The position numbers were made by a program, and so were the translations under genes. From Phycisphaerae bacterium (GTDB lineage Bacteria > Planctomycetota > Phycisphaerae > SM23-33), in contig DRGC01000032.1 of NCBI GenBank assembly GCA_011050235.1, forward strand, positions 30,042 to 94,041: DNA of 64,000 bases, read 5' to 3'. Under the pieces are notes generated by a model. The model was not told the origin of the DNA. It worked only from the letters and a program-made list of their open reading frames with translations, and searched no databases. Of the stretch, positions 3,210 to 58,103 are shown one piece after another (positions within the stretch are counted from its first letter, which is position 1; each line of letters opens with the position of its first letter).

Positions 3210-3875
3210 ATGAAGACGATTCGGACCATTCTGCTTGGCTTGGCGCTAACCTGTGGGCTTTCGACCGTAGCTTTCGGCGCCACGTTCGTTCAGACAACCC
3301 CGTACTTTAGCGCCGGTGACAGCCCGTTCAACACGGCGGCGCCCGGGTACCAAATCGAAGACTTCGAGGACTTGACCTTGAACACCCTCGGCATTCTTTC
3401 GTGGAGCACCTCCTTTGGCTCAGGGATATCTACGTTCTCGGTCGATGCTGATGACGGCGTCATCGACGGGTCAGGGGCTGGGGGGAAGTCGCTGTCGGTT
3501 GTCACCAGTGCAGGGGTCACCGGGTTGTTTATCAACTTCGATAGTGTCACATTTGGGCAATTCCCACAGGACGTCGGCATTGTGGTCACCCTTGCCAGTG
3601 CATTTCCTCTGGTCATTGAGGCGTTCGACCCTCTGGGCTTCTCGCTGGGAACGACCACGGCAAACTTGGCCTTGTCATCGCCGACCGGCGATGATGTGTT
3701 CTTCGGCGTAACGGACGTCGGCGGGATTTCGAAGTTCCACGTCTACTCAAACAGCGCGGCCACGTTCCTCCATGTGGACCACCTGCAGTACGGCCCTATC
3801 CCCGAACCAGCCACGATGAGCCTGCTGGCCCTGGGCGGCCTGGCCTTGCTACGGCGCAAGTCGAAGACCCCCTAG
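3210..3875 (+). CDS. PEP-CTERM sorting-domain secreted protein
   Basis: N-terminal signal peptide. The C-terminus is PEPATMSLLALGGLALLRRKSK: a PEP motif, a TM helix and a basic tail. Confidence 0.7.
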   Translation: MKTIRTILLGLALTCGLSTVAFGATFVQTTPYFSAGDSPFNTAAPGYQIEDFEDLTLNTLGILSWSTSFGSGISTFSVDADDGVIDGSGAGGKSLSVVTSAGVTGLFINFDSVTFGQFPQDVGIVVTLASAFPLVIEAFDPLGFSLGTTTANLALSSPTGDDVFFGVTDVGGISKFHVYSNSAATFLHVDHLQYGPIPEPATMSLLALGGLALLRRKSKTP

Positions 3876-3879
3876 GGGC

Positions 3880-3948
3880 GGCCGGGCGAGCGCGCAGGCG
3901 GGCGCGCCGGCGAGTTGGGGCAATATCTCGGTCGACAATTCCGACCGG
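3880..3948 (+). repeat. ~57-nt dispersed repeat, copy 2 (downstream of PEP-CTERM gene, upstream of PEBP gene)
   Basis: Same core, with a 12-nt insertion. Same orientation as copy 1, so the PEP-CTERM gene 3210..3875 is bracketed by direct repeats. Confidence 0.8.
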
Positions 3949-3993
3949 CAGGTATATAGTAAAGGTGTTCAGCCGTGGCAAGGAGATCGTGCT

Positions 3994-4587
3994 ATGACAC
4001 GGATCCGAACTATCACCGCGTGCGTCGCCGTTGGGTTGGCACTGGCGATGTCAGCGTGCAACGACAGCCCATCTCAGGCCGCCAACCCAGCCGAATACCA
4101 GCCACCCGAAGAGGCCGCCATGACCATCACATCCACCGCCTTCGCCAAGGGTCAGGCCATCCCGGAGAAATACACGGGCGAGGGCGAGGACGTCTCGCCG
4201 CCGTTGGCCTGGTCGGACGCGCCGGAAGGCGTGCGGCAGTTCGCGTTGATCTGCGACGACCCCGACGCCCCCAGCGGCGACTGGGTCCACTGGGTGATCT
4301 ACATGATCCCCGCCGACGCAGCCGGCCTGCCCGAAGCCATTCCCCCCGGCGAAAGGCCCGCCACGCCCAAGGGCTCGGCCCAGGGGGTGAACTCCTGGCC
4401 CGGGCGCATCCTCGGCTACAAAGGCCCCATGCCCCCACCCGGCCGCACGCATCACTACCACTTCAAGCTCTTCGCCCTCGAGGTGGTGTTGGACCTCGCG
4501 CCCGGCCTGGACAAGCCCGCCCTGCTGGCGGCCATGGCAGGCCACATCCTAGCCAAAGCCGAACTCGTCGGCACCTACGAACGCTAG
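3994..4587 (+). CDS. YbhB/YbcL (PEBP/Raf-kinase-inhibitor-like) family lipoprotein
   Basis: Lipobox AMSAC. PEBP motifs DDPDAP...WVHW and GPMPPPGRTHHYHFKLFAL are present. Confidence 0.75.
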   Translation: MTRIRTITACVAVGLALAMSACNDSPSQAANPAEYQPPEEAAMTITSTAFAKGQAIPEKYTGEGEDVSPPLAWSDAPEGVRQFALICDDPDAPSGDWVHWVIYMIPADAAGLPEAIPPGERPATPKGSAQGVNSWPGRILGYKGPMPPPGRTHHYHFKLFALEVVLDLAPGLDKPALLAAMAGHILAKAELVGTYER

Positions 4588-5107
4588 GTGGTCTTACGTA
4601 AGTCCGTAGCGATCGAGCCGTCGATTCAGGCCCCGGGGGGCCGTCTTGCTTAGCCCGGGGCGAAGCCGTAAGCGTGAGCGCAGCGAGCAGTCGAACGGCG
4701 AGCCCTGGGGAGTGAACCGACCCATGGGAAAGCCCCAACGGGGCGCCTTGAGGGGTCCGATAGCCCTGGCTCGTGTGATGGCACGGCCTCAACAATGGTC
4801 TCAAGCGCGTGGCTGACAAAGCCAAGACACCCCTTGCGGGGCTTGCCGCAATACCGACGATAACCCAGGGCTTGGCCTGACGGCCTACGCCCTGGGCTGA
4901 GCAAGGGACCCCGTTGGGGCCCAACAATCAACAAGGCCGCGCAAGAACTACCCGGGCAGGTCGCACGCCCGCCGGGCGGACACCTGCCATCCAAACGCTA
5001 CAGACTGATGGTAGGACGCTTAGTCGAGGCGACCAATATACGATGCGTTGTATAATGGTCGTGACTATTTTACGATGCCTGCGGGAACGGGGACCCAACC
5101 CGCGCTT

Positions 5108-12524: not shown

Positions 12525-12712
12525 GACCCGGCCATGGCCCAATCGACGTCGAACCGCGCCGAACAGCTCGGGCAAATCAGCACGATCCGAACTCCCCCGC
12601 TCTCGCGCCGCACGAACGAGACGTGAAATCCGTTGGTGTAGTCGCACTCGGGGCACGCCCGCAGTTCGTCAGCGATCTCAAGGCGTTTGGGTGTCTTCGC
12701 TTGGCTCATCAT
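12521..12712 (-). CDS. small zinc-ribbon protein (hypothetical)
   Basis: A 63-aa ORF has CPEC...CPSC zinc-ribbon pairs. A GGAAGGA Shine-Dalgarno sits upstream. Its stop overlaps the xthA start (ATGA). Its 5' end overlaps the 3' end of the upstream giant gene by about 35 nt. Confidence 0.45.
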   Translation of the reverse strand: MMSQAKTPKRLEIADELRACPECDYTNGFHVSFVRRESGGVRIVLICPSCSARFDVDWAMAGS

Positions 12713-15700
12713 CCGATCCTTCCGCTGCATCGGTGGCCGGGGCTGGAGTGTCCGCCCCCTCGCCGGGGTTGTGGTCCCACTGACAGATGAAGCCATACGC
12801 CCTCGCAGCCGGCACAGCCCGCCACTTGCCTCGCGTTCTCGGCCCCTCATACGGCACTTCGAACAGGATCGTCGCCGCCGGCGGGCCATAGATGCCGGCC
12901 CCCTCGTTGGTGGTCAGCCAGTTGGTGTAGTCGAGCGCCTTGCCTTGGGCCGTCTCCCACGCTTCGTCGGTTGGTCGGTGCGCGTCGATCCACATCGGCT
13001 GGCTTTGCCGGGTGAACATGGTGGCCAGATCGTTGGTCGCCTGCGAATCGATCTGAATCAGCCGCCCGCCCAGCCGGGCGCATATCTGATGGGCCTGGTC
13101 CCAGGTGACGGCTTCGTAGTAGGCCTTGTACCATTGGCCGCTGTGGCCGATCGCATCGGTGATCGCCCCGGCGGTTTCGGTGACGATCGCATCGAGCCCC
13201 AGTTCGGTCGGCTCGTCGGCGCTATCCCATTCGCACAGGAACACCGTGACGCCCGTGGGCGCGACGTCGTCCCACTCGGCCGCGCCGCCGAAGCCGATCA
13301 GGGCCACGTGCTGATACCCGTCCGTATTGTTCGGTTCGCCCGCAGCCCAGTTGGCATGGGTGACGGGCCGGCCGTCCACCCATCGCCAGTCTCCCTCGAC
13401 CTCGTCGTCGCTGGCCCCGATGAAGGTCAACTGCCCGCCGGCGAGAATAAAAGCGACCGTGTTCTCCTCGTCGCTGTCGATCGTGATCAAATGCCCGCCC
13501 CACGATTTGCAGATGGCCTTGGCCCGCGCCCAGGTGACGCCCTGGTTGAACAGCCGATAGCGATGGCCCTTGTAGATCACATCGTCGCCGCTCACGTCTA
13601 TCGCCAGCCCAGTCGCCTTGCGACGATCGGGCGGGCGGGGATCGTCATCCCACTGGCAGATGAAGCCCAACAGATCCGATTCCCGGGCGGGCTCCCACGC
13701 CCCCGTTCCGCGCCACCCGACGTAGGCGAACGCGTCAGCGGCGTCGACGGCCTCGGCCCCTTGCCGCCAATGGCCGCCCTCGGCGACCCGGCCGTCCAGC
13801 CACTGCCATTTGTCGCGCCCCGCCGGCTTGCTCAGGCCGATCCAGCCGGCCCTGCCGCCCGCGAGGTACAACAGGTAGCTGTTGACCACGCCCGAATCGA
13901 ACACCGCCAGACGCCCGCCCATCGCCTCGCAGCGGCGTTTGGCCTGAGCCCAGGTCAACGGAATGTCGACGTAGCGGTAGTAGCTGCCGCCCAGCTTGGC
14001 GACATCGCCGCCGGGGCGAAGGATGAACTCGGGTAAGGGCTCGCGGGCCAAGGGGGCCGGAGATTCGTCCACACACATGCCGGCCAGGTTGAGCGTCTCA
14101 GCCGTCACCACCCCCAACGCACTGACGCCCTCGCCCATGCGTCCAGCCAGCCCGACAATCGCTCGCCCGTCGCCGCCGAGCGTCTTGCTCACCTCGCCCC
14201 AGCCGTAGACGGCGCTCGTGCGGGCGCTGCCGGCGTCCAGACGCCCGTCGGCCAGAACGCGCATGAACACCACGCTGACGCCTGTGAGAGTTTTGTCGCC
14301 ATGAATGCGCAAGGCCCCGACGGCATAGCCGGCGGGAGCGGCGATCTCCAGCACCTCGCGGTCGCTTCGGCCGGCCGTCGGGCCGAGATGCCGACCCGTC
14401 GGTGTCCGATAGACCGGCTGGATGGTCGTGATCGGCGCATCGGCCGACGCCTGCAGGCCCAGCCGCACGCCCGCCAACCAGCCCGGGCCGCGCAGAACAT
14501 CCTCAAACGGCATGCCCTCGTCGCTGCCGATCGGCGTCGTTCGATCCAATTCGCTCTCGGCCGGCACGTCATCGTAGCCGGCAAACATGGGCCCGGCCGG
14601 CTGGGTCGACGGGTCGCCGACGCCAATCTGTCCCTTGGGCGGCATACGATCCAGTGTGCGGTAGTGAAGGTCTGTGAACTGACAGATCGCACGCCTCCCC
14701 CCCCCGTGACAGGTCAGTGTCAGTTGCGATTCGGAATCGAGCGGCGGATCGATCAGGTCTTTCTTATAGACCACGAGCTTGCCGTTGACATAAATGGCGA
14801 CCTGTTTGTCAAAGATCTGCAGGCAGAAGGCATTCTTTTCGCCCAGCGGAATCATGATCGTCTGACTCCTTTCATTCCGGTTGTTCTCATGATTTCGGTC
14901 GAACCGAACGAGGCCGCTCCGGGAGAAGCTGAGCTTGTAGGATGTCCTTCCGTCGTCGGTCTCCAGGGACAGGCCGCCTTCGCACTTGGTAACCTTCCGG
15001 TCGGGCAAGATCACCTGTCCGTGCACTGAAAAATGCGAGCCCACCGGCTGCGTTCGGGTCAGGCTGACGGCCCCTTTCGTTGCGTCCATCACGATCGCGC
15101 TGCCGGAGCCCCTGCGGGCGGCCCCCCGATCCAGCCGCCATCCGGCCAGGTCTGCACCCCCCGTCAGAGCCTGCCATCCGCCGCCGGCGAGAGTTTCAGT
15201 CTTCACCACCTGGGCCATGGCCTCACGCAGATAGGCCATCACTGCCCCCTCCTGGTGATACTGGCGGGCGATGGCGCGCAATGCTGTGGCGGCCCGGTCA
15301 TAGCGTTCGTTGCGGAAGGCTGCCCGGGCGCGGGCCAGCGCGTCGGCGTGCGGGCCTGTCTCGACGATAATACGCCCCACGGCCACCGGCGCCGCGGTGT
15401 CGGAATCGGTGAAGATCTCCTCCGCCGTCGCCCACCACGGGCCGACGTCGTCCAGATCGAACAGCCACTGCTGCGCTTGGGGCCAGGCGTGCTGCTCGTA
15501 GGCAACGCGAAGGCCCGCCAAGCGGACCCTCGCGGCGAACGAGCCTGTCGCGTGGGTGTCGGCGTAGCGTTGGAACATCCGACGAATCTGGCCCTGTTCG
15601 AGGGAGGGTTGCGACCAGAGCGGCCGCCCCTTGTGCCGGCCGGCGGCGACGATTGCCTGATAGGCGACCAGCGGCACGGCCGTGTCGTATCGCTCGGTCT

Positions 15701-16730
15701 GCAGGCATTGCCCGGCGAAGGTCCGCAGGTCCTCGACGACCGGGCGATTATGGGTGCGCTCGATCATCGCGATGCGGTTAGCGTATGCCGGTGCGTAATC
15801 AAACTGGGCGGCCAGGGCCCGTTCGAACCAGGCATGAGCGTCCCGGCTGTCGTAGAACAGAAGCCCCAGCATCTCGGCCGCCGCCTCGGGCCGATCGGGA
15901 CGGTCGTAATAGGCGGCCTTCAGGAGCCGGCGCGCCTCGGGGTACGCGGGGTGCCGGTCCGACGTGCGCCGCACGGCCACGATGCCGCCACGCTCGTCGA
16001 CGACGCCGACGTGATAACGGGCCGTCAGCATCTTGACCGTCCACGGGGACGAGTCGCTCTGCCGGCCGGACGCTTTGGCGAAACGCCACCTTCCGGCGGC
16101 CCCCAGGTTAGCGAACCATGGGTCGGTCACAATGGCCAGCAGCGCCCGCTGGTCGTCCTGGCCATAGGCCGCGCTGCCGACGGCGCGGAGGAAATGGTCG
16201 TGGGCGATCTCGTCGTAACGCTTGGAGACCGTTGCCTGCCCCCACACTCGCATGAGTCTCGCCAGCCTGGCGGCGGCCGAGCCCGCCAGGAGATCCGGAC
16301 CGGCCGGTCCGTTCAGGTGGGCGACCCCTTCGCGCAGATAGGTCATGGCTTCACCGTCCAAGCCCGTCTCGTCCAGAGCAATACCATACGCCGTCCAGAC
16401 GATCGGGTCGTCGCAGCCGGCGACGAGGAGTTCTCGCCCGGCTGCGGCCAGGTCGTCCCAGGGCGGGGCCTGCGTGGGCACATCACGATGGGCGGCCAGG
16501 CGCGCGGCGACGGCGGCAAGAAAGGCCCGAGCGTCGTCATCCCAGGCGGAATTGGCTTGGCCGCCGGCGGGGTAGGCGTCTGCGAGGTTGCGGGTCCACA
16601 GCGTCTGCCGGCCGGCGACGACGTCGGCCATGCTAACGGTGTTGGGAACGTTGGGGACGCGTTGGCCCCAGGCGGCCGTTGCCCACACGAGAACCAACGC
16701 GACGATTGCGATTGTGTTCTGTCTTGTCAT
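12678..16730 (-). CDS. 1350-aa secreted multidomain protein: signal peptide, TPR-like helical region, DUF1080/LamG-like domain, three tandem C-type lectin-like domains
   Basis: Signal peptide MTRQNTIAIVALVLVWATAAWG. The DUF1080-like stretch is (...GKLVVYKKD). CTLD repeats start at WAQAKRRCEAMGGRLAV, WARAKAICKSWGGHLITI and WDQAHQICARLGGRLIQI. The second CTLD carries EPN...E...WDD. Confidence 0.7.
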   Translation of the reverse strand: MTRQNTIAIVALVLVWATAAWGQRVPNVPNTVSMADVVAGRQTLWTRNLADAYPAGGQANSAWDDDARAFLAAVAARLAAHRDVPTQAPPWDDLAAAGRELLVAGCDDPIVWTAYGIALDETGLDGEAMTYLREGVAHLNGPAGPDLLAGSAAARLARLMRVWGQATVSKRYDEIAHDHFLRAVGSAAYGQDDQRALLAIVTDPWFANLGAAGRWRFAKASGRQSDSSPWTVKMLTARYHVGVVDERGGIVAVRRTSDRHPAYPEARRLLKAAYYDRPDRPEAAAEMLGLLFYDSRDAHAWFERALAAQFDYAPAYANRIAMIERTHNRPVVEDLRTFAGQCLQTERYDTAVPLVAYQAIVAAGRHKGRPLWSQPSLEQGQIRRMFQRYADTHATGSFAARVRLAGLRVAYEQHAWPQAQQWLFDLDDVGPWWATAEEIFTDSDTAAPVAVGRIIVETGPHADALARARAAFRNERYDRAATALRAIARQYHQEGAVMAYLREAMAQVVKTETLAGGGWQALTGGADLAGWRLDRGAARRGSGSAIVMDATKGAVSLTRTQPVGSHFSVHGQVILPDRKVTKCEGGLSLETDDGRTSYKLSFSRSGLVRFDRNHENNRNERSQTIMIPLGEKNAFCLQIFDKQVAIYVNGKLVVYKKDLIDPPLDSESQLTLTCHGGGRRAICQFTDLHYRTLDRMPPKGQIGVGDPSTQPAGPMFAGYDDVPAESELDRTTPIGSDEGMPFEDVLRGPGWLAGVRLGLQASADAPITTIQPVYRTPTGRHLGPTAGRSDREVLEIAAPAGYAVGALRIHGDKTLTGVSVVFMRVLADGRLDAGSARTSAVYGWGEVSKTLGGDGRAIVGLAGRMGEGVSALGVVTAETLNLAGMCVDESPAPLAREPLPEFILRPGGDVAKLGGSYYRYVDIPLTWAQAKRRCEAMGGRLAVFDSGVVNSYLLYLAGGRAGWIGLSKPAGRDKWQWLDGRVAEGGHWRQGAEAVDAADAFAYVGWRGTGAWEPARESDLLGFICQWDDDPRPPDRRKATGLAIDVSGDDVIYKGHRYRLFNQGVTWARAKAICKSWGGHLITIDSDEENTVAFILAGGQLTFIGASDDEVEGDWRWVDGRPVTHANWAAGEPNNTDGYQHVALIGFGGAAEWDDVAPTGVTVFLCEWDSADEPTELGLDAIVTETAGAITDAIGHSGQWYKAYYEAVTWDQAHQICARLGGRLIQIDSQATNDLATMFTRQSQPMWIDAHRPTDEAWETAQGKALDYTNWLTTNEGAGIYGPPAATILFEVPYEGPRTRGKWRAVPAARAYGFICQWDHNPGEGADTPAPATDAAEGSDDEPSEDTQTP

Positions 16731-16884
16731 GACCCCGCCGGAAGCCGCCCGGCCATCGCTGGTGACGGCGGATGCGCAGCCTGTGCGATCGACTCGGGGG
16801 AATTATACCGCGGAAGACAAGATGATACGAGGACTTGATGTCAGCCCAGGCGCACAGCGGAGGAAGGGCGATGGGGCCGGCGGA

Positions 16885-17019
16885 TCAGGCGGCCGCGGCG
16901 CGGGCTTCGGCCTTGGCGGCCTTGCGGGCGCGCTCGCGGGCCTTGCGCTTGGCGTTCTTACGGCGGGTAATGATCTGGTTTTCGCGTCGTTTGTTCAGAC
17001 GGTCTCGTCGGCGTCCCAC
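16885..17019 (-). CDS. small (44 aa) highly basic protein, GTG start (hypothetical, possibly ribosome/nucleic-acid associated)
   Basis: Translation VGRRRDRLNKRRENQIITRRKNAKRKARERARKAAKAEARAAAA. Third-position GC bias is strong and codon usage matches the genome. AAAGGA lies 6 nt upstream of GTG, and a TATACT -10-like box is upstream. Confidence 0.35.
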   Translation of the reverse strand: MGRRRDRLNKRRENQIITRRKNAKRKARERARKAAKAEARAAAA

Positions 17020-26811: not shown

Positions 26812-26830
26812 TGTCCCGCCGCGCAGCCAA

Positions 26831-26876
26831 GCCAGGCAAGAGCAGGCGGGACAGGAGCCCCGCCTGCCGACGCTAT
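26831..26876 (+). repeat. REP-like dispersed element, copy 1
   Basis: CCAGGCAAGAGCAGGCGGGACAGGAGCCCCGCCTGCCGACGCTATG holds the internal hairpin GCAGGCGGG/CCCGCCTGC. It lies 3' of a minus-strand gene. A second copy is at 58029..58074. Confidence 0.8.
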
Positions 26877-27701: not shown

Positions 27702-27823
27702 AGCGGGCGCCTTTCCAACATCGTTCGAGGGGCCGCCCCGCATCGGTCCTGTCGATGCGGGGGCGTCGATTCTGTCGATGCGTATGATATCGACCGGCCC
27801 GGCCTCGGTTGTGTATGTTTTCC

Positions 27824-30619
<2,796 letters not shown>

Positions 30620-30850
30620 CCGTCATACCTCATGACACACATCGACCCGCCCGGACCGTGGGTTTCGTGGGACCATCATGTAACACATCGGCAAAACGGT
30701 CACCACAAAAAACATTCGCCCCCGCCCGAACCGCGGCCGCCCGTGAGCCGTAGGAACTGCAGCAACTATCGTCGGGGTCGTCCAGTGGGCCGCCCACGCG
30801 CGGCCCGCCCGCCCGTGCAGCGTCGAATAGGACCCGATCGGAGTCAGCGC

Positions 30851-31840
30851 ATGATCGCCAACGTTTTCCAGGGAATGCCGACTCGAGACGTGATGGTCCT
30901 TTTTTCGTTCCTGGCAGCGATCGGCGTGGTCTACGCGGCGACGGGCGTCATTGTGATCCGCTATCTTTGGCGATTGGCGATCGGGTCTAAGAAGCGCCCA
31001 ACGTCCGCTTGGCTGAAGTGGGGCCGGCGGGTCATATTGACTCTGGCCGTGGTGGGCGTGCTCTGCGGCCTGTACGGATGGCTGGTCGAGCCCTATTGGC
31101 TGGAGACGACGCACGCGCAGGCGCCGACCGCCAAGCTGCCGCCAGGCGCCAAGCCGATCCGCATCGTTCACATCAGCGACCTGCACTGCGACCCCAAGGT
31201 CCGCCTGGAAGATGAGCTGCCCCAAGCCGTCGCCGAGTTGAGGCCCGACATCATCTGCTTCACCGGCGATGCGGTCAATTCGCCCGCCGGCCTGGCCAAC
31301 TTCCGGCGATGCATGACGGCATTGGCCAAGATCGCGCCGACCTACGCCGTCTGGGGCAACTGGGAACACTTTTTCCCCACCCTCGACTACTACGGCGGCA
31401 CGGGCGTCCATCTCCTCGACGATACCTCGATCCAACAGACCATCGACGGCCAGCCTGTGACCATTGCCGGAATCCGTCACCGGCGTGACCTTCGATCCGG
31501 CATGCAGCGCGCCCTGGCGAGCATCGAGGGCGAAGGCCCGGTGGTGCTTCTGTGCCACATGCCCAGCATCATTCTCGAGCTGCCCGGCCGGGGTGTCGAC
31601 CTGTGCCTGTCCGGCCACATCCACGGCGGCCAGGTCGCCCTGCCGATCTATGGCGCGATGGTGACACTGACGCCGACGGGCAAGCGTTTCGAGCGGGGGC
31701 TATACAAACATGAGGACACGCACCTGTACGTTAGCCGCGGCTTGGGCATCGAAGGCGGCGGCAACGCGCCGCGCCTGCGATTCTGCGCCCGCCCGGAAGT
31801 GACGCTCATCGAACTGGTCCCCGACCGCCCGGCCCCCTAG
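30851..31840 (+). CDS. membrane-anchored metallophosphoesterase (calcineurin-like)
   Basis: Two N-terminal TM helices. Motifs IVHISDLHCD, FTGDAVN, GNWE and LSGHIHGGQ. It is the only genuine part of the 1343-aa ORF in the track. Confidence 0.7.
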   Translation: MIANVFQGMPTRDVMVLFSFLAAIGVVYAATGVIVIRYLWRLAIGSKKRPTSAWLKWGRRVILTLAVVGVLCGLYGWLVEPYWLETTHAQAPTAKLPPGAKPIRIVHISDLHCDPKVRLEDELPQAVAELRPDIICFTGDAVNSPAGLANFRRCMTALAKIAPTYAVWGNWEHFFPTLDYYGGTGVHLLDDTSIQQTIDGQPVTIAGIRHRRDLRSGMQRALASIEGEGPVVLLCHMPSIILELPGRGVDLCLSGHIHGGQVALPIYGAMVTLTPTGKRFERGLYKHEDTHLYVSRGLGIEGGGNAPRLRFCARPEVTLIELVPDRPAP

Positions 31841-34800
31841 GCCTGTGCGCCCCCTTGCCCCTCAGCCGACGACGTTCGCCGCGGCGCCTTCTGCGGCCAG
31901 GGGAGAATGAAGTCCAGGGCCATGGTCCGCAGCGAGCCCGTCTGCTGGGCGTTGGCGTGACGGCGGGCGATCTTCGCAAACTCCGGGAACCGGGCCTCAT
32001 CGGTATAGAACTCGATCATCGTATGCCCGTCGTCCAAACCGGCCTGTGTCCCATCGCCCAACAGCCAGGGCATCACCCAGCGCCCGTGGAACTCCCGTTG
32101 AATGCCCATGCGCGTGACGGCGAATGTCTCCGGGCTCTTTCGATAGCCAAGGAAGACGGCGACGATCGTCTCGCCCCTGAGCATCACGCGCGGGATGTTC
32201 GGGCTGAACTGGCGAGCCGGCGCCCCGGCCCCGTCGGCAAACCACTGGCGCAGGAACTCGTCCACCTGTTGCCAGGGCACGTCTCCAAGCGGCACGAGGC
32301 GGACGTCCTCGGGGATTTCCTTGCGGCGCCGATAACGGTCGACGATGCCCATGCACAGATCTCTGAACGTCACCCCGTCCATTATGTAGATCGATTCGAC
32401 CGTCGTCGTCTCGAAACTCAGCCGTTCCAGGCATTGCCGGAGCACCACCTGGCTCTCATCCTCGACAAGTGTCGACACCATCCGCTTGGCCCCGCCGGCG
32501 GCCGCCCGGGCCACAGCCGCGCGCATCAGGCGTGTCAGGAGCAGCGCCTCTTGCCCATCGCCCTGGGGAGCATCTGTTTGCTGACGCACGCTCAGTTTCA
32601 ACTTGATCGTATTGCCTGTGGGATCTTGAAGCTGCAGGACCACCGCGCCATGGACGTCGTTGACGCCGGCCGGATGTATCACCAGGACCTCCCGGTTGTA
32701 GGGATCGATGAACGGATTCTCGAACATTTGGCACAGCACGGGTTGATCCGAAGGCAACGTCGGCCGGACGATCCAGGTCGTCTGGCCCGGCGCGCCTTTG
32801 GCGGGGGCCCCCGCTTCGCCTGCGCCAGCCTCCGGCGAGAATGTCACCTCTCGTGCGGCGGCGTTTTCCGCCACGTAGTCGTCCAGGCACTCGTCGGCGG
32901 CGGCCAGGTCGTCGATGAACTGGCGCTGCCACTCGGCAATCTCCCGTTGGGCTTGTTGGATATGAGCATCACTGGCGGGAGGCGGCTCATCCAGGCCGCC
33001 ATCCGTTGAGGCCGACTTGCGCTGTGAAGGGCTGTCCCCGGCCTGCATCCGAGCCAGCGCTTCTTGTGCGGCCGTATGGTTCGGATCGATACCCAAGGCG
33101 GTCTCAAAGGCCTGTTTCGCGCGGTCGCAGTCGCCCAGCTCAGTCAGGGCCCTGCCCAGCGCCACGTGTCCGGCCGGGCGGGCGAAATCCACCCCCACAG
33201 CCTGCAGCGCCGCCTCGGCGGAAGGGGCGAACTGTCCCCAGCGATACAGGGCCTCCGATAGGCCCATGTGGCCCGGCCAGAAACCGGGGGCCAATTCGAC
33301 CGATCGCGTAAAGGCCTCAATAGCCCGCGGCAGGTGATCCGTCAGCAGACAGGCCCGGCCAAGATGGTAGAACAGTTCGGGAATCGGTGGGTCGTCCTCC
33401 GCCGCCTGTTCCAACAGGTCCATCGCCTGGTCGGTCTGTCCGCTGTGCAAGGCGATCAGGGCGGCCATCAACTTCCCGACCGGCTGGTCAGGGAACGACC
33501 GGGCGATCGGCGCCGCCAAGGCGAGGGCCTGGCGGACCTGCCCCCCGACATAGAGCGCGTGCGTTGCGGTCAGGGCCCTGGCTACGTGCAACGGATGGGT
33601 GTAGTACAGGCGAAGCAGCAGCGGCAGGGCCATCCTCTCGCGCGAAGAGCCCAGAAACGTTCGAGCCAGGTTCCACTCACGGTCCGTCCGGACGCCCGTC
33701 GCCGCCCGGTCCGCGTGGGCGGCGAAAAAACCGATCTCCTCGATCCATGAAGCCGGGGCGGCCAGGTGATCCGCCGGCGGGCGATGCGGCGGGGCCTGAT
33801 CCCACGACGCGGCCATCTGGATCGACAAAGGCGGCTGGCTGAAGGCCTCCGTTAGCACTCGCCCGTCCATGTCATCGCCCGGGGCCAGGCCGCACAGATG
33901 CAGAACGGTCGGACAGAGGTCGAGGCTATGGACGTTGTGAATCAACTCGCCTTCGACCACGCCCGGCGCCCGCATGACGAAGATACCTTCGCCTCGATAG
34001 ACCGAATCGAGCGGCATCAGTTGCGCTGCTCTGCGCCGAGGCCGTCGGGCAGGCGGCGCAAAGCTGCAGGCCGAGTACAGCACGATCGCAGCGTCGTCGC
34101 CGGCCAACTCCAACAGCCGTCCGAGGAGCAAATCACACAGCCGCACCGCAGCCGCCGCCACGCCGCTGAACAGTTCAAATCCCCGCATGTCCACCCACGG
34201 TAGGCGCGGGGGATGGTATTTCAGAAACTGCATCCACAACGCCTCAATAGCGGGATAGGTCACCGACGTGACGTCCCAGTCGGTCTTCTCCATCAGCCTG
34301 GTCACGACCGCGTGGATGGACAGGGTCTGGGAGACGATGGCGGCAATGGTCACCAGCCGCGGGTCGTGCGCATCGAACTGCCCGAAACGCGGGACGAACA
34401 GGGCCATCGTCTCGGCATCGATCTCTTCCAGGGAGACGACGAACTCCTTGAGGGATCCGAGATGATTGGCCGGCAGGACGCTGCCGAACGGCACGACGAA
34501 CGATGATTGATAGCTGGCGGGGATGTTTCGGAAGAACTCCGGGCTGACGAAGACACCGTTGACGGGCTCGGCCGGCGCGGTGGCGGGGAAACTGACGACG
34601 TTGCAGCGGCGCCCGCTCTGCGAAACGATCTCCCAGAATGCCTTGGCCCGGCGCGACAGGCTGTTGACGGCCTGCACCGCCCCGTTGCTGCGGACCTCAC
34701 TGGGCCCCAGAACGCCGTGTTTGTCGGCGCGCTTGCCGGTCGCGACGGTGTTATGCACGATCGGAGCGATCAGGGGTCCCTGGGTCAAGGGGGTCCCCAT

Positions 34801-34941
34801 CACCCCCTGGTCGACGAGGCGTTGGAGATTGGGCAACTGCCCGCTATCCAGCATCGGGGTGATCTGGCGCCACCCGGCTGAATCCCAGCCGACCATCAAG
34901 ATCCTGGTGCACTTGGCCTGACTCGAACTCATCATTTGCAT
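31837..34941 (-). CDS. 1034-aa protein: N-terminal AlkP-superfamily NPP/type-I-phosphodiesterase-like domain + TPR repeats + unassigned C-terminal domain (paralog A)
   Basis: ILMVGWDSAGW...TPMLDSGQLPNLQRL...HNTVATGKRADKHGVLG resembles the NPP motif around the catalytic Thr, but the Thr position is not conserved. Central TPR repeats. The C-terminal ~350 aa are unassigned, possibly GNAT-like. Confidence 0.6.
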   Translation of the reverse strand: MQMMSSSQAKCTRILMVGWDSAGWRQITPMLDSGQLPNLQRLVDQGVMGTPLTQGPLIAPIVHNTVATGKRADKHGVLGPSEVRSNGAVQAVNSLSRRAKAFWEIVSQSGRRCNVVSFPATAPAEPVNGVFVSPEFFRNIPASYQSSFVVPFGSVLPANHLGSLKEFVVSLEEIDAETMALFVPRFGQFDAHDPRLVTIAAIVSQTLSIHAVVTRLMEKTDWDVTSVTYPAIEALWMQFLKYHPPRLPWVDMRGFELFSGVAAAAVRLCDLLLGRLLELAGDDAAIVLYSACSFAPPARRPRRRAAQLMPLDSVYRGEGIFVMRAPGVVEGELIHNVHSLDLCPTVLHLCGLAPGDDMDGRVLTEAFSQPPLSIQMAASWDQAPPHRPPADHLAAPASWIEEIGFFAAHADRAATGVRTDREWNLARTFLGSSRERMALPLLLRLYYTHPLHVARALTATHALYVGGQVRQALALAAPIARSFPDQPVGKLMAALIALHSGQTDQAMDLLEQAAEDDPPIPELFYHLGRACLLTDHLPRAIEAFTRSVELAPGFWPGHMGLSEALYRWGQFAPSAEAALQAVGVDFARPAGHVALGRALTELGDCDRAKQAFETALGIDPNHTAAQEALARMQAGDSPSQRKSASTDGGLDEPPPASDAHIQQAQREIAEWQRQFIDDLAAADECLDDYVAENAAAREVTFSPEAGAGEAGAPAKGAPGQTTWIVRPTLPSDQPVLCQMFENPFIDPYNREVLVIHPAGVNDVHGAVVLQLQDPTGNTIKLKLSVRQQTDAPQGDGQEALLLTRLMRAAVARAAAGGAKRMVSTLVEDESQVVLRQCLERLSFETTTVESIYIMDGVTFRDLCMGIVDRYRRRKEIPEDVRLVPLGDVPWQQVDEFLRQWFADGAGAPARQFSPNIPRVMLRGETIVAVFLGYRKSPETFAVTRMGIQREFHGRWVMPWLLGDGTQAGLDDGHTMIEFYTDEARFPEFAKIARRHANAQQTGSLRTMALDFILPWPQKAPRRTSSAEGQGGAQA

Positions 34942-35034: not shown

Positions 35035-38000
35035 CTATGGTTTCTTCTGGCCCGGCTGCGACCAAGGCACGACGATATCCAGTGTCATGATCCACGTCCG
35101 GGCGAGTTCTTTGCCGCCCGTCCGACGGCCGATTCGGATCATGTCAGGAAAGACGCTCTCATCGGCATACAAGTGGATCGTCCGCAGACCGCTGTCGTAG
35201 CCGGCCTTGGCCCCGTAGCCGACAAGCATCGGCGTCGCCCAACCGTTCTGGTATTCGTCCAAGACGGCAAGACGCGGCGAAATCCATATGTCATCTTGCA
35301 CATGACCCACGTAGCCCGCGATGATCTCATCGCCGCGCAGGATCACCAGCGACAGACGCTCATCCAGGCCCAGTCGTCCGGGCCCCACACCGTCGTCGAA
35401 GAAGCCTTGGAAGAACTGGTCGACCTTGTGCATGGGCACATCCCGAAACGACACAACCCGGACGTCGTCTGGGATCACCTGCCGCTGCCTGCAGCGCTCG
35501 ACGACCCTCAGACACCGATCGCGTGTTGCGGCCATGTCCATGCCAAAGACCATCTCGCGTTTCTTGACCCGGAAGCCCACTCGTTCGAGGGATTCTCTCA
35601 GTTGCCCTTGTCCTTCAGGGGAAAAGGCGTACGAGACCGCCGTTGCCCCGGAGGCGACCGCACGAATGATGCCCGCACGAATCAGCGCCCATCGCGCGGT
35701 GTTCTCGTCTAGGCCGACATCGGCCGCCGCGGCGAGGGAGGCGAGATAGGGCACAAGCGCGATGCGCTTGCCGGTGTTGTCGCCTGTCCGCAGGGATACG
35801 GCGCCGATCAATGGGATTTCGCCCTCCCGGTGAAGGACAAAGACGTCATGGCGATGGTGTTCCGTCAGCACCCGGGAGGTGATTTCGCTCACCTGGCCAA
35901 AATCAGCAGGCATGATGGGGCGTACGACAAGCCCCATGTCGGTCAGCATCGGCCCGGATATCTCGCTCGATTCCGCCGGCGGCGCCTGGTCGTCCTGGTC
36001 GGCCAGTTGGCTGGCGTTGGTGGCAAGATACGCATCCAACTGCTGATCCGCTTGTCGGAAGCAGTCGATAAAGTTGTTGGCCCAGATCGAGACCTCTCGA
36101 CGGGCGCCGGCGACACCCAGGCGCAATTGGTCCACATCCCAGCGTGACGGCCCCTCACCGGCCAGGGGCAGGGCGTCCTCCTCTTCGACGTCCTCAAGCT
36201 CCCCACCGGATTGCAGGTGGGCCAGTCGGTTCTTGGCCAGCGTGAAATTCTCATTGAACCTCAGGGCGTTGGCGTAGGCCTGCTTGGCTTGCTCCGGATC
36301 GTCGAGTTTTTCCAGACACATGCCCAGCATATAGTGGGCCGGCGCGCTGGAGAAGTCCACCGACAGGGCCTGCAGCGCCTCGTCGGCGGCCGCTTCGTGC
36401 TCTCCCGACGCGAGGCGCACCCGACTGCGTCCCAGATACCCGGGGATGCAGGTCGAATCGATCTCGATGGCCTGGGTGAAGCAGTCCATGGCCCGGCCCA
36501 GTCGGTGCGCTCGCCGATGGACTTCCCCCAGGTAGAGGTACAACTGGGGGATCGGCGGATTGTCTTTAGCGGCATCCTCGAACAGATCCAGGGCCTCATA
36601 GTCGCGGCCTTCGCTCTGGGCGATGACGCCGGCCATGCACTTCCCAGCCGGGGACTGGCCATGAACGGACACAAAGTTCCGCATGACGGTGATCGCTTCT
36701 TCGGTGAGGCCGTGGAGATATAGCGACTCGGCCACCAACGGCGCCATCTCCGTCCAGAACGGGGTGACATAGTATAACCGGGTCATCAGAGGCAGGGCCA
36801 GATCGGGGCGCGAGGAGTTCAGGCAGGCTTCGGCCTGGTTCCAGTCGTTCTGCATCTGCACCCATAGCGCATTCCGACCGCCATGCGCTGAAGTAAAGGA
36901 CATCTGCTCTGTCCACGGGATCGGCTGGCGGTCCTCGGGCAACGCCGGTCTGACGGGCGGACGTGTCTCCCAGGTCTTGATGGTCTTGGCCTGAGGCAGT
37001 GGTTGAGCGAACGCGTCGGTCAAGACGCGACCGTCCATATCCTCCGGCACGGCGACATTGCACAGGGCCAGCACCGTCGGACAGAAGTCCGTCTCTCGGA
37101 CGCCATGAATCAACTCATCACGTCGCGTGCCGTCGGCCCGCATGACGAAGATGCCCTGCGGCCGATGCAGCTGCGCTTCCGTCCGAGGCCCGGACACTGG
37201 GGTCTGTGACACCCGATGATGCGCCTGATACGCCCGCGGGGAATAGATAATGACCGCGGCATCCTCGCCGGCCAACGCCAGCACGCGCCCCAGAAGCAAG
37301 TCACACAGGCGGACCGAACTGTTGACGACGTCCTTGAACAGGTCGAACTCCTCTGGGTCCACCCAGTCCAGACGAGGGGGATGGTACTGCAGGAATTTTC
37401 GGGAGAACACCTCGATGGCGGGATAGTTGACGCTCATGACGCGCCACTGCGAGTTTTCCATCAGCCACGTCGCCACCGCATGCACGGACAGCGTTTGCGT
37501 CACGGCGCTGGCAATCTGAGCCAGGCGATCGTCACGGAACGACAACTCGCTCATCCGCGGCACGAACAAGCCGACGGTGGGCGGATCCAGATCTTCCAGA
37601 GCGACGATGAACTCCTGAAGCGTCGACGCCAAATCAGCGGGCCAGACACTGTCTTCCGGCACGTGCACCGGGCTCCAACTGCTGGTCCGCTGGCTGCCAA
37701 AGAATGCACGACCGACAAAGCTGCCGCTCGTTTCTTCGGCGGGCTCGGCCGTGGGAAAATTGACCACGTTGCATAGAACGTCATTCTGCGAGAGGATCTC
37801 CCAGAACGCTTTGGCGCGGCGTGATAGGCTTGTGATCGGCCGGAACGACTGCCCGTAGCTGCCCATCTCGTGGGTGCCGAATATGCCATGCTTTTCCGGA
37901 TACTTGCCAGTCGCCAGAGAGGAGTACACCATCGGCTCCATTACAGGTCTGACCGATGTCATCGACCCCATCACCCCTTGCTCGAGGACCCGGGCCAGAT

Positions 38001-38145
38001 TGGGCAGTTCGCCACGGTCCAGCAGAGGGGTGATCACGTCCCAGCCGGCCGCATGCCAGCCAACCAGCAAGACTTTTTGATCCTTCGGATTACTCTTAGG
38101 CGCCACGGTGGTACTCCTGTACGAGGTGCACTCGGCGTGCTTCAT
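35035..38145 (-). CDS. 1036-aa paralog B of the NPP-like/TPR protein
   Basis: Same architecture. LLVGWHAAGW..TPLLDRGELPNLARV...SSLATGKYPEKHGIFG is a very NPP-like block. About 45-50% identity to paralog A over the N-terminal domain, by eye. Confidence 0.6.
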   Translation of the reverse strand: MKHAECTSYRSTTVAPKSNPKDQKVLLVGWHAAGWDVITPLLDRGELPNLARVLEQGVMGSMTSVRPVMEPMVYSSLATGKYPEKHGIFGTHEMGSYGQSFRPITSLSRRAKAFWEILSQNDVLCNVVNFPTAEPAEETSGSFVGRAFFGSQRTSSWSPVHVPEDSVWPADLASTLQEFIVALEDLDPPTVGLFVPRMSELSFRDDRLAQIASAVTQTLSVHAVATWLMENSQWRVMSVNYPAIEVFSRKFLQYHPPRLDWVDPEEFDLFKDVVNSSVRLCDLLLGRVLALAGEDAAVIIYSPRAYQAHHRVSQTPVSGPRTEAQLHRPQGIFVMRADGTRRDELIHGVRETDFCPTVLALCNVAVPEDMDGRVLTDAFAQPLPQAKTIKTWETRPPVRPALPEDRQPIPWTEQMSFTSAHGGRNALWVQMQNDWNQAEACLNSSRPDLALPLMTRLYYVTPFWTEMAPLVAESLYLHGLTEEAITVMRNFVSVHGQSPAGKCMAGVIAQSEGRDYEALDLFEDAAKDNPPIPQLYLYLGEVHRRAHRLGRAMDCFTQAIEIDSTCIPGYLGRSRVRLASGEHEAAADEALQALSVDFSSAPAHYMLGMCLEKLDDPEQAKQAYANALRFNENFTLAKNRLAHLQSGGELEDVEEEDALPLAGEGPSRWDVDQLRLGVAGARREVSIWANNFIDCFRQADQQLDAYLATNASQLADQDDQAPPAESSEISGPMLTDMGLVVRPIMPADFGQVSEITSRVLTEHHRHDVFVLHREGEIPLIGAVSLRTGDNTGKRIALVPYLASLAAAADVGLDENTARWALIRAGIIRAVASGATAVSYAFSPEGQGQLRESLERVGFRVKKREMVFGMDMAATRDRCLRVVERCRQRQVIPDDVRVVSFRDVPMHKVDQFFQGFFDDGVGPGRLGLDERLSLVILRGDEIIAGYVGHVQDDIWISPRLAVLDEYQNGWATPMLVGYGAKAGYDSGLRTIHLYADESVFPDMIRIGRRTGGKELARTWIMTLDIVVPWSQPGQKKP

Positions 38146-38286: not shown

Positions 38287-40266
38287 CTATGGGCCGCGAC
38301 GTTTGTGAAGCTCTGCCCAGTCGTTCGTGAAACTCTTGAGTATAACCGGAAGCAGCAGAGTCGGTTCGACCATATAGCGAAGGATATCATACAAGAAGAC
38401 ATTGGGGCTGGCGCTCGCGTTCCGCAGGCGGAACCGACGGTAGCCGAGGTCGTAGACACGCTTGAGTTCCATGACGGTGAAATTACGGGATCGCGGGCCG
38501 GGCGCCAACCTGGCCCTCGGTGTTGACGATTCGTCTTGACCGCCCTCTGGCGTGCTGCCCCAGGGGGCGTCGTCGTTGACCACGATCTCGATTCGGTCGC
38601 GATCGAGTCTGGCCAGCAAATCCAGATCGAACCCGTCTGAGGGAGATACGGCAACGACGTCGAATCGTTCGGCCAGCGCGTTGTAATGCTCCGCTTGTCC
38701 GCAGCCGCCTTCGGCGATCGTCTTGGCCAGCGATGCCGAGAGCCTCAGCTCCGGATGTCGAGATCGAATGTGATCAGCCAGCACGTCGCTGGCGACCTCT
38801 ACGCCGTTGAGGCGACTTTCGTGATCGAGGATCTCCAGGATGCCATTGCCCGACTCATCGCCAAGATCGGCCGATTGGAGTTGGTGGCTGTTGAAGATGC
38901 AGAACACCCCGATATCCATCTTATTGAAACGCCCAACGACCTCAGCCCACCCCGCCAAGTTCAGCCTGGATCTTGCCGATCGGGGCAGCCCGTTCCAACG
39001 CACCTGAAGTTCACCGTAAACGCCATCGACGCTCGTCTGACACTTGAGCTCTTCAGTCAACACACCAAGGACGTTACGGATCACCTGTCCGTGGGCGGTC
39101 AGGCCCTCGATCGACCAACGACCATCCGGCCATAGCGGATGTCGACCCTCCATTCCGGTCGGCAGGCCGGTTCCAGCCATGATGGCCGGGCCCACGACTG
39201 TCGGCAGGGCTGGCGCAGGCTCTGCGGGGCATGCCTCGACGGCGGTCGACGCGGGGACACCGGTCTTCGCTTCCTGCAGGTGGGCGCGGCGGACATTCCT
39301 GACCGATTCCAGGGCCTGGCGGGTGACTTGGCCTGAAACGAAGGCCTTGAAGATGACGGGCGTAAGGAGTTCCGGCTCGACCGAGAAGCGAAGCAGGTCG
39401 AACAGGAATGTGCCCGGCATGTTCTGACGCCCCTGCAGCTTGAAGCGGCGGAAGCCCATCTCGTAGACCCGCAGCAAATGCGCCATGGAGAAGTTGCAGG
39501 ACCGCACGACCGGCGTAAGCCGCCCCCCGGGCGCTCGGCAGTACTTCTTTCGCGTGTATTCGTACTCCAGATCGGAGGCATCGGGTAATCCGGACTTTAT
39601 CAGCTCCGCCATCACCTGGTAGTCGTTTATGCGGTGCGTGCACAGATAGGCACAGTCCTCATTGACCATGATCTCGGTCTTCTCGCGGTCGAGCTGCTCC
39701 AGCAGGTCATACTCAAACCCGTCATCGGGATGCACCATGACGCCGTCGTACCGCTTCAGGACCGAGCGATAGTAGCCCAAATCGCCGCGCCCCTCTTCTT
39801 CGGTGACTTTGACGATCGAGGCCGTCAGCCTCAACTCCGGGTGCCTTTGGCGAACGTAGTCCAACAGCAGATCACTAGCCAAGATCACACCGTTGAGGCC
39901 CAGACCATTGTCGATGCCCTCCAGCAGCATGTTGCAGTTGGCGTTCGCCAGATCGCTCTTGTCCAGCAAGTGATTGCTGAAGGTGAAGTAAACCCCGATC
40001 CCCACATCGTTGAATGACCGCACCATTGCCTCCAGGGCTTCCGGTGTCGGTACCCGCACGGTGCTGATCCGACCGCAATTCCACGGGACCTCAGGCGCTC
40101 CATGAATGCTGTCAAGATTCAAGTGGCAGCCGTACCGATCCTCAAGGACGCTGTAGACCTGGAGGATCAACTGGTCATGCACGAACAGGCCGGTGAGGTT
40201 CCAGTGCGCCTCCGGCCAAAGAGGATTCCTCGCTTGATAACCGAATGGCAGTGAGTCCGTCATCAC
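38287..40266 (-). CDS. 659-aa protein made of two tandem copies of an uncharacterised ~300-aa module (paralog 1)
   Basis: Module hallmarks are NPLWPEAHWN / HPLWPDGRWS, FNDVGIGVYFTFSNHLL / FNKMDIGVFCIFNSHQL, HPELRLTAS / HPELRLSAS, VNEDCAY / VNDDAPW, RVYEMGFRRFKLQ / RVYDLGYRRFRLR and EPELLTPVIFKAF / EPTLLLPVILKSF. A beta/alpha pattern suggests a TIM-barrel-like fold. Confidence 0.55.
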   Translation of the reverse strand: MMTDSLPFGYQARNPLWPEAHWNLTGLFVHDQLILQVYSVLEDRYGCHLNLDSIHGAPEVPWNCGRISTVRVPTPEALEAMVRSFNDVGIGVYFTFSNHLLDKSDLANANCNMLLEGIDNGLGLNGVILASDLLLDYVRQRHPELRLTASIVKVTEEEGRGDLGYYRSVLKRYDGVMVHPDDGFEYDLLEQLDREKTEIMVNEDCAYLCTHRINDYQVMAELIKSGLPDASDLEYEYTRKKYCRAPGGRLTPVVRSCNFSMAHLLRVYEMGFRRFKLQGRQNMPGTFLFDLLRFSVEPELLTPVIFKAFVSGQVTRQALESVRNVRRAHLQEAKTGVPASTAVEACPAEPAPALPTVVGPAIMAGTGLPTGMEGRHPLWPDGRWSIEGLTAHGQVIRNVLGVLTEELKCQTSVDGVYGELQVRWNGLPRSARSRLNLAGWAEVVGRFNKMDIGVFCIFNSHQLQSADLGDESGNGILEILDHESRLNGVEVASDVLADHIRSRHPELRLSASLAKTIAEGGCGQAEHYNALAERFDVVAVSPSDGFDLDLLARLDRDRIEIVVNDDAPWGSTPEGGQDESSTPRARLAPGPRSRNFTVMELKRVYDLGYRRFRLRNASASPNVFLYDILRYMVEPTLLLPVILKSFTNDWAELHKRRGP

Positions 40267-58028: not shown

Positions 58029-58074
58029 TGCAGCGAGACCAGGCAAAAGCAGGCGGGACAGGAGCCCCGCCTGC
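58029..58074 (+). repeat. REP-like dispersed element, copy 2 (3' of nusB)
   Basis: 45 of 47 positions match 26831..26876. Same orientation. Again just downstream of a minus-strand gene end. Confidence 0.8.
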
Positions 58075-58103
58075 CGACGCTATAGGCTACATCCCTGTCC
58101 TTG

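Follow-up and report, generated by a model that had tools for sequence, protein, structure and literature searches.

A minus-strand gene at positions 12678-16730 of a 64,000-nucleotide stretch from an uncultured marine-sediment planctomycete (Phycisphaerae bacterium, contig DRGC01000032.1; the whole stretch is hereafter called the window) encodes a protein whose predicted domains combine three kinds of sugar-binding fold. From the N- to the C-terminus, the protein is made up of a signal-peptide-like segment, a tetratricopeptide-repeat-like (TPR-like) helical domain, a DUF1080 domain, a jacalin-like domain, three C-type lectin-like domains (CTLD1 to CTLD3) and an acidic tail. On balance, and with some reserve, we favor the view that this is a Sec-exported, soluble or envelope-associated glycan-binding protein, whose lectin tail, through a single calcium-dependent sugar site in CTLD2, directs or anchors a core made of the TPR-like and DUF1080 domains. 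What was computed are the identities of the domains, the alignment of the motifs, conservation and synteny; we infer export, calcium and sugar binding, the class of ligand and the division of labor between the domains.

The gene is a single open reading frame (ORF) with an ATG start, coding for 1350 amino acids (aa) plus a stop codon, and its product is identical to the NCBI record HDZ20747.1 / KKN70360.1 (LCGC14_0431600) from a marine sediment metagenome. The ORF is real. A preliminary description of this DNA had given no strand for it, and had called the protein giant, a generous term for a product of this length. Two long plus-strand ORFs overlap the gene (12687-14036 and 15033-16838); they are without family support and are ordinary for DNA of about 67% G+C.

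How might such a protein act? The TPR-like and DUF1080 domains, as the constant core of the family, would carry the core activity or dock to a partner, and the jacalin-like domain and the CTLDs would form an optional targeting extension. Within this extension, calcium held at a site composed of E1132, N1134, Q1140, D1154 and D1155 of CTLD2 would coordinate two vicinal sugar hydroxyls, and through binding at this site the protein, or the cell, would become attached to a polysaccharide or glycoconjugate. CTLD1, CTLD3 and the jacalin-like domain, being without canonical sugar residues, would most likely act as spacers or supports, or bind in a non-canonical way.

The C-type lectin domains and the putative calcium site of CTLD2

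Three matches to Pfam Lectin_C (PF00059) occupy the last third of the protein (whole-protein E 5.6e-34). Each spans roughly positions 2-106 of the 107 in the profile (E 7.2e-9 for CTLD1, 4e-13 for CTLD2 and 2.3e-11 for CTLD3) and exceeds the 22.6-bit cut-off, as is proper to long-form CTLDs. Comparison by phmmer with PDB sequences returned langerin, the mannose receptor, DEC-205 and the phospholipase A2 receptor PLA2R (lowest E 1e-27), and the matches are, at the level of sequence, far above chance. The three tandem CTLDs of the preliminary description are thereby borne out, since the profile searches give a lectin fold three times and not a non-lectin one.

CTLD1 (aa ~912-1034, positions 13629..13997, minus strand) contains a WIGL motif and Cys934/Cys1025, CTLD2 (aa ~1050-1170, 13221..13583, minus strand) Cys1074/Cys1166 and CTLD3 (aa ~1196-1322, 12765..13145, minus strand) Cys1217/Cys1316. 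Each domain thus possesses two cysteines, C1 and C4, and the C2-C3 disulfide is missing in all three, the corresponding columns being occupied by Phe/Glu in CTLD1, Val/Pro in CTLD2 (Val1142, Pro1158) and Val/Ala in CTLD3. Absence of the inner cysteine pair, and with it of the two-disulfide arrangement, is common to the whole non-animal class of matches.

The position of the putative sugar site was derived from an alignment, made with a hidden Markov model (HMM), of 1055 CTLDs extracted from the 150 best matches of an exhaustive search with the window protein. In this alignment, E1132-P1133-N1134 of CTLD2 (13329..13337, minus strand) fall in the consensus E/P/N columns, and W1153-D1154-D1155 (13266..13274, minus strand) in the W/N/D columns, the middle one of which holds Asn in 517 domains and Asp in 90. 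The residue eight positions after the EPN Glu, the canonical place of a calcium-ligand Glu, is Gln1140 (13311..13313, minus strand), in a column with Glu in 409 domains and Gln in 96; an alignment-free regular expression agrees, giving a site of the form EPN/Q/WDD. This position corresponds to that of Glu193 in mannose-binding protein A (MBP-A) and of Glu293 in langerin. At calcium site 2, E1132, N1134 and D1155 are accordingly in place, with Q1140 standing for Glu and D1154 for Asn. CTLD1 and CTLD3 have neither EPN nor WND and lack calcium site 2; the sugar site of CTLD1 is degenerate for this reason.

The preliminary description had read EPN...E...WDD in CTLD2. The string is literally there, and its EPN and WDD align with the carbohydrate-site positions, which removes the objection that they might not; the Glu that it counted, E1152, occupies a non-ligand position, and the ligand position is that of Gln1140. 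The further claim of a canonical, intact site does not hold, as Gln1140 and Asp1154 both deviate and the C2-C3 disulfide is gone. Calling the domain 'mannose-type' is unsafe, because the ligand Glu is replaced by Gln1140 and the Asn of WND by Asp1154, and its sugar specificity is uncertain.

Are these two replacements signs of decay? Across the unrelated CTLDs of the alignment, domains with Glu at +8 have Asn in WND in 308 cases and Asp in 8, whereas those with Gln at +8 have Asn in 27 and Asp in 34 (Fisher p 3e-24; p 5e-8 with one domain per protein; both from counts uncorrected for phylogeny). The alignment-free regular expression yields Asn/Asp counts of 223/2 with Glu and 19/23 with Gln at +8, and the coupled Gln/Asp form occurs in four-cysteine animal-type and non-animal CTLDs alike. 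Coupling of this kind is what retention of the metal site would predict. Judged by these patterns, Gln1140/Asp1154 looks like a compensated swap and not like decay, and the EPN/Q/WDD variant is probably alive. As a separate observation, four domains of the alignment carry the Gln/Asp swap together with QPD (QPD/Q/WDD).

Conservation within the family points the same way. EPN/Q/WDD is kept in every member of the sub-family (P0006, P0010, P0025, P0029 and L002, the last at ~36% overall identity), and a sister sub-family (P0007, P0008, P0012 and P0024) has one fully canonical EPN/E/WND CTLD per protein. Since both sub-families keep exactly one site and let the other CTLDs drift, one site per protein is under selection.

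The corresponding Glu and Asn of mannose-binding protein are calcium ligands, and both hydrogen-bond to one and the same sugar hydroxyl. Formally, the paired swap would preserve the number of oxygen ligands and the charge and exchange donor for acceptor, in analogy to the change from EPN to QPD on the other side of the ion. Because of this exchange, we do not endorse assignment to mannose or GlcNAc. A bolder idea, which we put forward as speculation and consider rather improbable, is that EPN/Q/WDD represents a functional and recurrent third 'setting' of the CTLD calcium site, with an inverted hydrogen-bond pattern at one hydroxyl and a sugar preference unlike that of the mannose and galactose types. 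The Phycisphaerae family would then be a prokaryotic one-disulfide case of this setting, and would belong to a large radiation, older than the metazoans, of true calcium-dependent C-type lectins among bacteria and archaea.

Among solved single domains, the closest relative of CTLD2 is langerin (CD207; E ~1e-15), a comparison that extends to mannose-binding protein. CTLD2 resembles langerin in the position of EPN, in a His after the ligand position and in its WIGL-like and WxWxDG motifs; the loop from EPN to W-x-D is also of equal length. It differs from langerin and mannose-binding protein in Gln1140 and Asp1154, in retaining the outer C1-C4 disulfide alone, in its bacterial host and in being without a coiled-coil neck. 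Whole-protein scores among solved structures are highest for the animal mannose-receptor family (MRC1, PLA2R, DEC-205), whose members likewise have tandem CTLDs of which only some bear sugar-binding residues; unlike these, the window protein has two-cysteine CTLDs and neither ricin-type or fibronectin-II N-terminal domains nor a transmembrane anchor. The change from WND to WDD seen in CTLD2 recurs in the bivalve C-type lectins MyCLF (EPN/WDD) and TgCTL-1 (QPN/WDD), of which TgCTL-1 is listed as calcium-dependent (PMC12842671). Those domains, however, are animal and four-cysteine, and the review that describes them is silent on a paired change from Glu to Gln (PMC12842671).

Alternatively, the lectin folds may bind protein, lipid or mineral, and the protein may help to build or shape the planctomycete cell envelope, as a structural or assembly factor whose TPR-like domain makes protein-protein contacts. 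Sugar binding is absent from the majority of CTLD-fold domains in nature, sugar-site residues are missing from CTLD1, CTLD3 and the jacalin-like domain, and the site of CTLD2 itself departs from the canonical pentad; synteny with housekeeping genes and vertical inheritance would also suit a core cellular role. If the site were unused, however, it would be hard to explain why exactly one EPN-type site per protein is kept in both sub-families and why the Gln and Asp changes are coupled and not random. We regard this second of the rival explanations as improbable.

The conserved core, the jacalin-like domain and predicted export

Upstream of the lectin tail lies an all-helical TPR-like domain (aa ~24-515, ~490 aa; 15186..16661, minus strand), the best-conserved part of the family; RPEAAA and WFxRAxAAQxDYxPAY are among its motifs. 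Its assignment draws on relatives: a ten-member family profile of the N-terminal domain matches the TPR protein PA4667 (8sxe) with E 2.6e-5, and TPR families of Pfam are matched by six of the ten members, with DUF4034 matched weakly by three. The window protein alone gives a weak match to TPR_16 (E 0.04). An AlphaFold single-sequence model of aa 24-712 has about 24 helices, at low confidence (pLDDT 42, pTM 0.28). The ~500 aa of TPR-like helices in the preliminary description are thus upheld at the level of the family profile, over ~490 aa, and weakly for the query by itself.

A similar situation holds for the adjoining beta domain of the DUF1080 / 3-keto-disaccharide-hydrolase-like (ConA-like) type (aa ~516-700; 14631..15185, minus strand), which is all-beta in the same low-confidence model. 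The window protein aligns with PF06439 (DUF1080) over the full profile length at 17.7-17.9 bits (E 0.004; cut-off 26.8), and four of eight aligned family members match it (best E 7.7e-10), with P0062 above the cut-off at 38.2 bits. A profile search of the domain against PDB sequences found nothing significant (best 3h3l, E 0.28). The DUF1080/LamG-like domain proposed earlier is therefore acceptable for the family, where half of the aligned members and P0062 bear it out, and sub-threshold for the query. Like the DUF1080, 3-keto-disaccharide hydrolase and CBM66 proteins of Planctomycetes and Bacteroidota, the query has a ConA-like beta domain with a full PF06439 alignment; it differs from them in being divergent and below the Pfam threshold. 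We found no account in the literature of DUF1080 fused to this specific ~490-aa TPR-like domain and lectin domains, and nothing specific on DUF4034, on bacterial PF00059/Lectin_C proteins or on C-type lectins of Planctomycetes.

It is conceivable that this core is itself catalytic, for instance in cleaving 3-keto-glycosides or other glycosides, and that the protein is an exported carbohydrate-active enzyme with the lectin domains as substrate-targeting modules. An invariant core with an optional lectin tail is the arrangement seen where accessory binding modules are added to a catalytic core, PF06439 bears the Pfam name 3-keto-disaccharide hydrolase, and motifs in the N-terminal domain are conserved beyond the needs of a pure scaffold. 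DUF1080 is moreover over-represented and greatly expanded in Planctomycetes, where its members are usually exported and have been proposed to be secreted glycosidases (PMC5673643). The same fold, however, also goes under CBM66, a binding module without catalytic function (PMC5673643). The DUF1080 score of the query (17.9 bits) stays below the Pfam threshold of 26.8, catalytic residues are undefined for the DUF1080-like domain, and no sugar-catabolic genes lie nearby. This is the main rival to a glycan-binding role, and we think it unlikely.

Between the core and the CTLDs, the preliminary description had listed nothing, and its domain list was incomplete in this respect. The segment aa ~728-880 (14091..14549, minus strand) adopts in the predicted structure the three-fold, four-stranded beta-prism I fold of jacalin-related lectins. 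This fold was recognized through structure prediction and not through sequence profiles: a profile search of the domain against PDB sequences returned nothing significant, Pfam Jacalin (PF01419) scores 13-14 bits against the query (E 0.07-0.14), below its cut-off of 22, and weak matches to it occur in 5 of 17 relatives (best E 0.009). The GXXXD sugar loop, a reference motif of the Heltuba and banana lectin sequences, corresponds in the query to G866-E-G-V-S870, with Ser870 at the position of the Asp; orthologs have R, E or Q there. By its modeled structure, then, the protein holds a hidden jacalin-fold domain without the canonical sugar Asp. Identity to the mannose-binding jacalin-related lectins Heltuba, banana lectin, ZG16 and the Methanococcus Mevo lectin is just 12-20%, and the loss of the Asp sets the query apart from them as well as from the stand-alone relatives P0167, P0170, P0176 and P0177, which retain it. 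Those belong to a set of small metagenomic proteins (P0164-P0177, 97-320 aa) in which the jacalin-like domain is found alone or in tandem duplicate; some have an N-terminal hydrophobic segment, several the GXXXD Asp, and none is assigned a Pfam domain.

Export was predicted from the N-terminus (aa 1-22, MTRQNTIAIVALVLVWATAAWG; 16665..16730, minus strand), which by eye opens with basic residues and continues into a 16-residue hydrophobic stretch. Equivalent signal-peptide-like N-termini are present in the relatives P0006, P0007, P0012 and P0108, in agreement with the earlier proposal of a secreted protein. The acidic, Pro/Thr-rich C-terminal tail (aa 1323-1350; 12681..12764, minus strand) contains, as read from its sequence, neither a hydrophobic anchor nor a recognizable sorting signal.

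Family, neighborhood and origin

The exhaustive search with the window protein gave 22147 matches at E <= 1e-3 and 385 at E <= 1e-30; relatives with the full architecture are P0006, P0007, P0008, P0012 and P0024. Related loci in genomes and metagenomes were found with patterns from a four-sequence alignment, a ten-sequence N-terminal alignment being too divergent for the purpose. A scan of representative genomes with the window protein as lone query gave no match, and a word-indexed homolog search with CTLD2 alone gave one. The related loci are labeled as Planctomycetaceae and Verrucomicrobiia. All nine encode the TPR-like and DUF1080 core, and three of the nine the jacalin-like domain and three CTLDs, from which it follows that the lectin tail is an accessory extension. 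In its absence, the core is found alone (P0108, L008-L010), with a second DUF1080-like domain (L007), behind a GYF_2 domain (L003, Verrucomicrobiia) or, duplicated, behind a thioredoxin-like Redoxin domain (P0062).

The lectin gene is followed by genes for exonuclease III (xthA), a lipoprotein of unknown family and a phosphoglycerate-mutase-like protein (iPGM), and is preceded by a divergent pyruvate kinase gene and by CstA. Of these neighbors, xthA recurs directly downstream in L002, L004 and L005, and an upstream pyruvate kinase gene is shared by L002, L005 and L006. Only the ~36%-identical ortholog L002 shows more of the order (CstA, pyruvate kinase, lectin, xthA, lipoprotein, iPGM), the lipoprotein and phosphoglycerate-mutase-like neighbors being kept just partly elsewhere. 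Because the neighborhood is partly conserved, the gene can be taken to be vertically inherited; as read from its sequence context, it is chromosomal and forms part of a syntenic family. The neighbors give no functional hint, and a function based on an operon was rejected in view of their identities (exonuclease III, lipoprotein, phosphoglycerate-mutase-like protein and pyruvate kinase).

Between pyruvate kinase and the lectin gene lies an extremely basic ORF of 44 aa with a GTG start (VGRRRDRLNKRRENQIITRRKNAKRKARERARKAAKAEARAAAA; 16885-17019, minus strand). It also stands beside pyruvate kinase in L002, L005 and L006, at 64-77% aa identity and with no Pfam match, and judging from this conservation it is probably a real small gene.

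Are such lectin domains unusual in prokaryotes, as the preliminary description had supposed in calling them rare in bacteria? We counted sites in the 147 best cluster representatives of the exhaustive search. Sixty have the animal-type cysteine pattern, and the one that was looked up is an amphioxus MRC1-like protein. In the remaining 87, each CTLD has two cysteines or none, their prokaryotic origin having been verified in part; the few named members, besides the Phycisphaerae query, belong to assemblies of Planctomycetota, Nitrosopumilus and Hodarchaeales. Of these 87, 58 carry one or more complete sites of the form EPN or QPD / E / WND, and on this ground CTLDs with intact motifs are not rare outside animals. 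Bacterial CTLDs are described as 'compact' in the textbook view (PMC9630629), and we found no published characterization of these prokaryotic CTLDs with complete sites.

These comparisons also bear on the possibility that the CTLDs derive from a recent transfer from animals or from eukaryotic contamination of the assembly. Such an origin could be suspected because the best solved-structure matches are all animal receptors, in a structure set that is heavily animal-biased. The 40 nearest domain-level neighbors of each query CTLD, however, are all of the two- or zero-cysteine kind and none is of the animal four-cysteine kind, which makes a recent animal origin unlikely. The named four-cysteine match is the amphioxus MRC1-like protein and the named two-cysteine ones are archaeal or planctomycete; furthermore, the G+C content of the lectin gene is the same as that of the flanking DNA, and in several assemblies its surroundings show conserved bacterial synteny. 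We consider this origin very improbable and reject it.

C-terminal domains of C-type lectin fold in large exported bacterial proteins are the usual targets of diversity-generating retroelements, and the CTLDs might accordingly be variable domains like those of Bordetella phage Mtd or Treponema TvpA. By their Pfam match, however, they are of the Lectin_C (PF00059) type and not of the formylglycine-generating-enzyme type on which such elements act. A repeat search of the 64-kb window found no template/variable repeat pair for the gene and no direct repeat of at least 40 nucleotides (nt) touching the CTLD-coding positions 12765-13997; the sole repeat family overlapping 12678-16730 is a chance-level match of 42 nt and 74%, located at 15184-15225 where the TPR-like and DUF1080 domains are encoded. 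Among 28 ORFs compared with Pfam, a non-exhaustive set including 19 neighboring or other large ORFs, no reverse transcriptase turned up. Within the window as scanned, a retroelement is thereby effectively refuted.

Returning to the proposed glycan-binding role, several points weigh against it. The calcium site of CTLD2 departs from the canonical pentad, and calcium and sugar binding by a Gln/Asp-swapped site is putative. With CTLD1 and CTLD3 degenerate and the essential Asp missing from the jacalin-like domain, the word lectin perhaps fits only ~120 of the 1350 residues. Enzymatic activity may reside in the conserved core, to which lectin binding would then be secondary. Sec export is a prediction from a signal peptide judged by eye only, and the final location may be the periplasm, the surface or the medium. 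Lastly, pyruvate kinase, exonuclease III, the phosphoglycerate-mutase-like protein and CstA offer no glycan context.

Further features of the window and implications

Elsewhere in the window, two tandem paralogous genes on the minus strand (38287-40266 and 40442-42472) encode proteins of 659 and 676 aa, neither with a Pfam match; their nucleotide identity is 76-80% in blocks over most of their length, at a spacing of ~2200 nt. Adjacent to one another on the same strand, two paralogs of ~1035 aa (31837-34941 and 35035-38145) begin with a type I phosphodiesterase / nucleotide pyrophosphatase domain and continue with TPR repeats. A plus-strand ORF of 1343 aa (27809-31840) overlaps the leucyl-tRNA synthetase gene (27824-30619, minus strand) and has a family match, to calcineurin-like phosphoesterase, only in its last ~230 residues; the real plus-strand gene in this interval is probably the 3' part only.

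Two further repeats were seen. One, of 54 nt, occurs at 26823-26876 and 58030-58083 (93% identity, 31 kb apart) with an internal inverted repeat (GCAGGCGGG...CCCGCCTGC), and may be a dispersed intergenic repeat or a terminator element. The other, a direct repeat of 76 nt at 2838-2913 and 3878-3953 (86% identity), stands just 5' of the plus-strand ORFs 3210-3875 and 3975-4601 and may be a duplicated leader or promoter region.

What do the C-type lectin domains of this family mean beyond the single protein? Textbooks regard long-form CTLDs with a calcium site as having arisen in animals (PMC9630629). The window protein and dozens of non-animal-type relatives, among them sequences from Asgard and thaumarchaeal assemblies, show that sites which look complete are common among prokaryotes not yet cultured. 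Being single-copy, conserved and syntenic, the Phycisphaerae family offers a tractable entry to the question of calcium and sugar binding in prokaryotic CTLDs, and to the effect of the Gln/Asp swap on specificity. For the Phycisphaerae of marine sediments themselves, the protein is a candidate means of holding on to polysaccharide particles.

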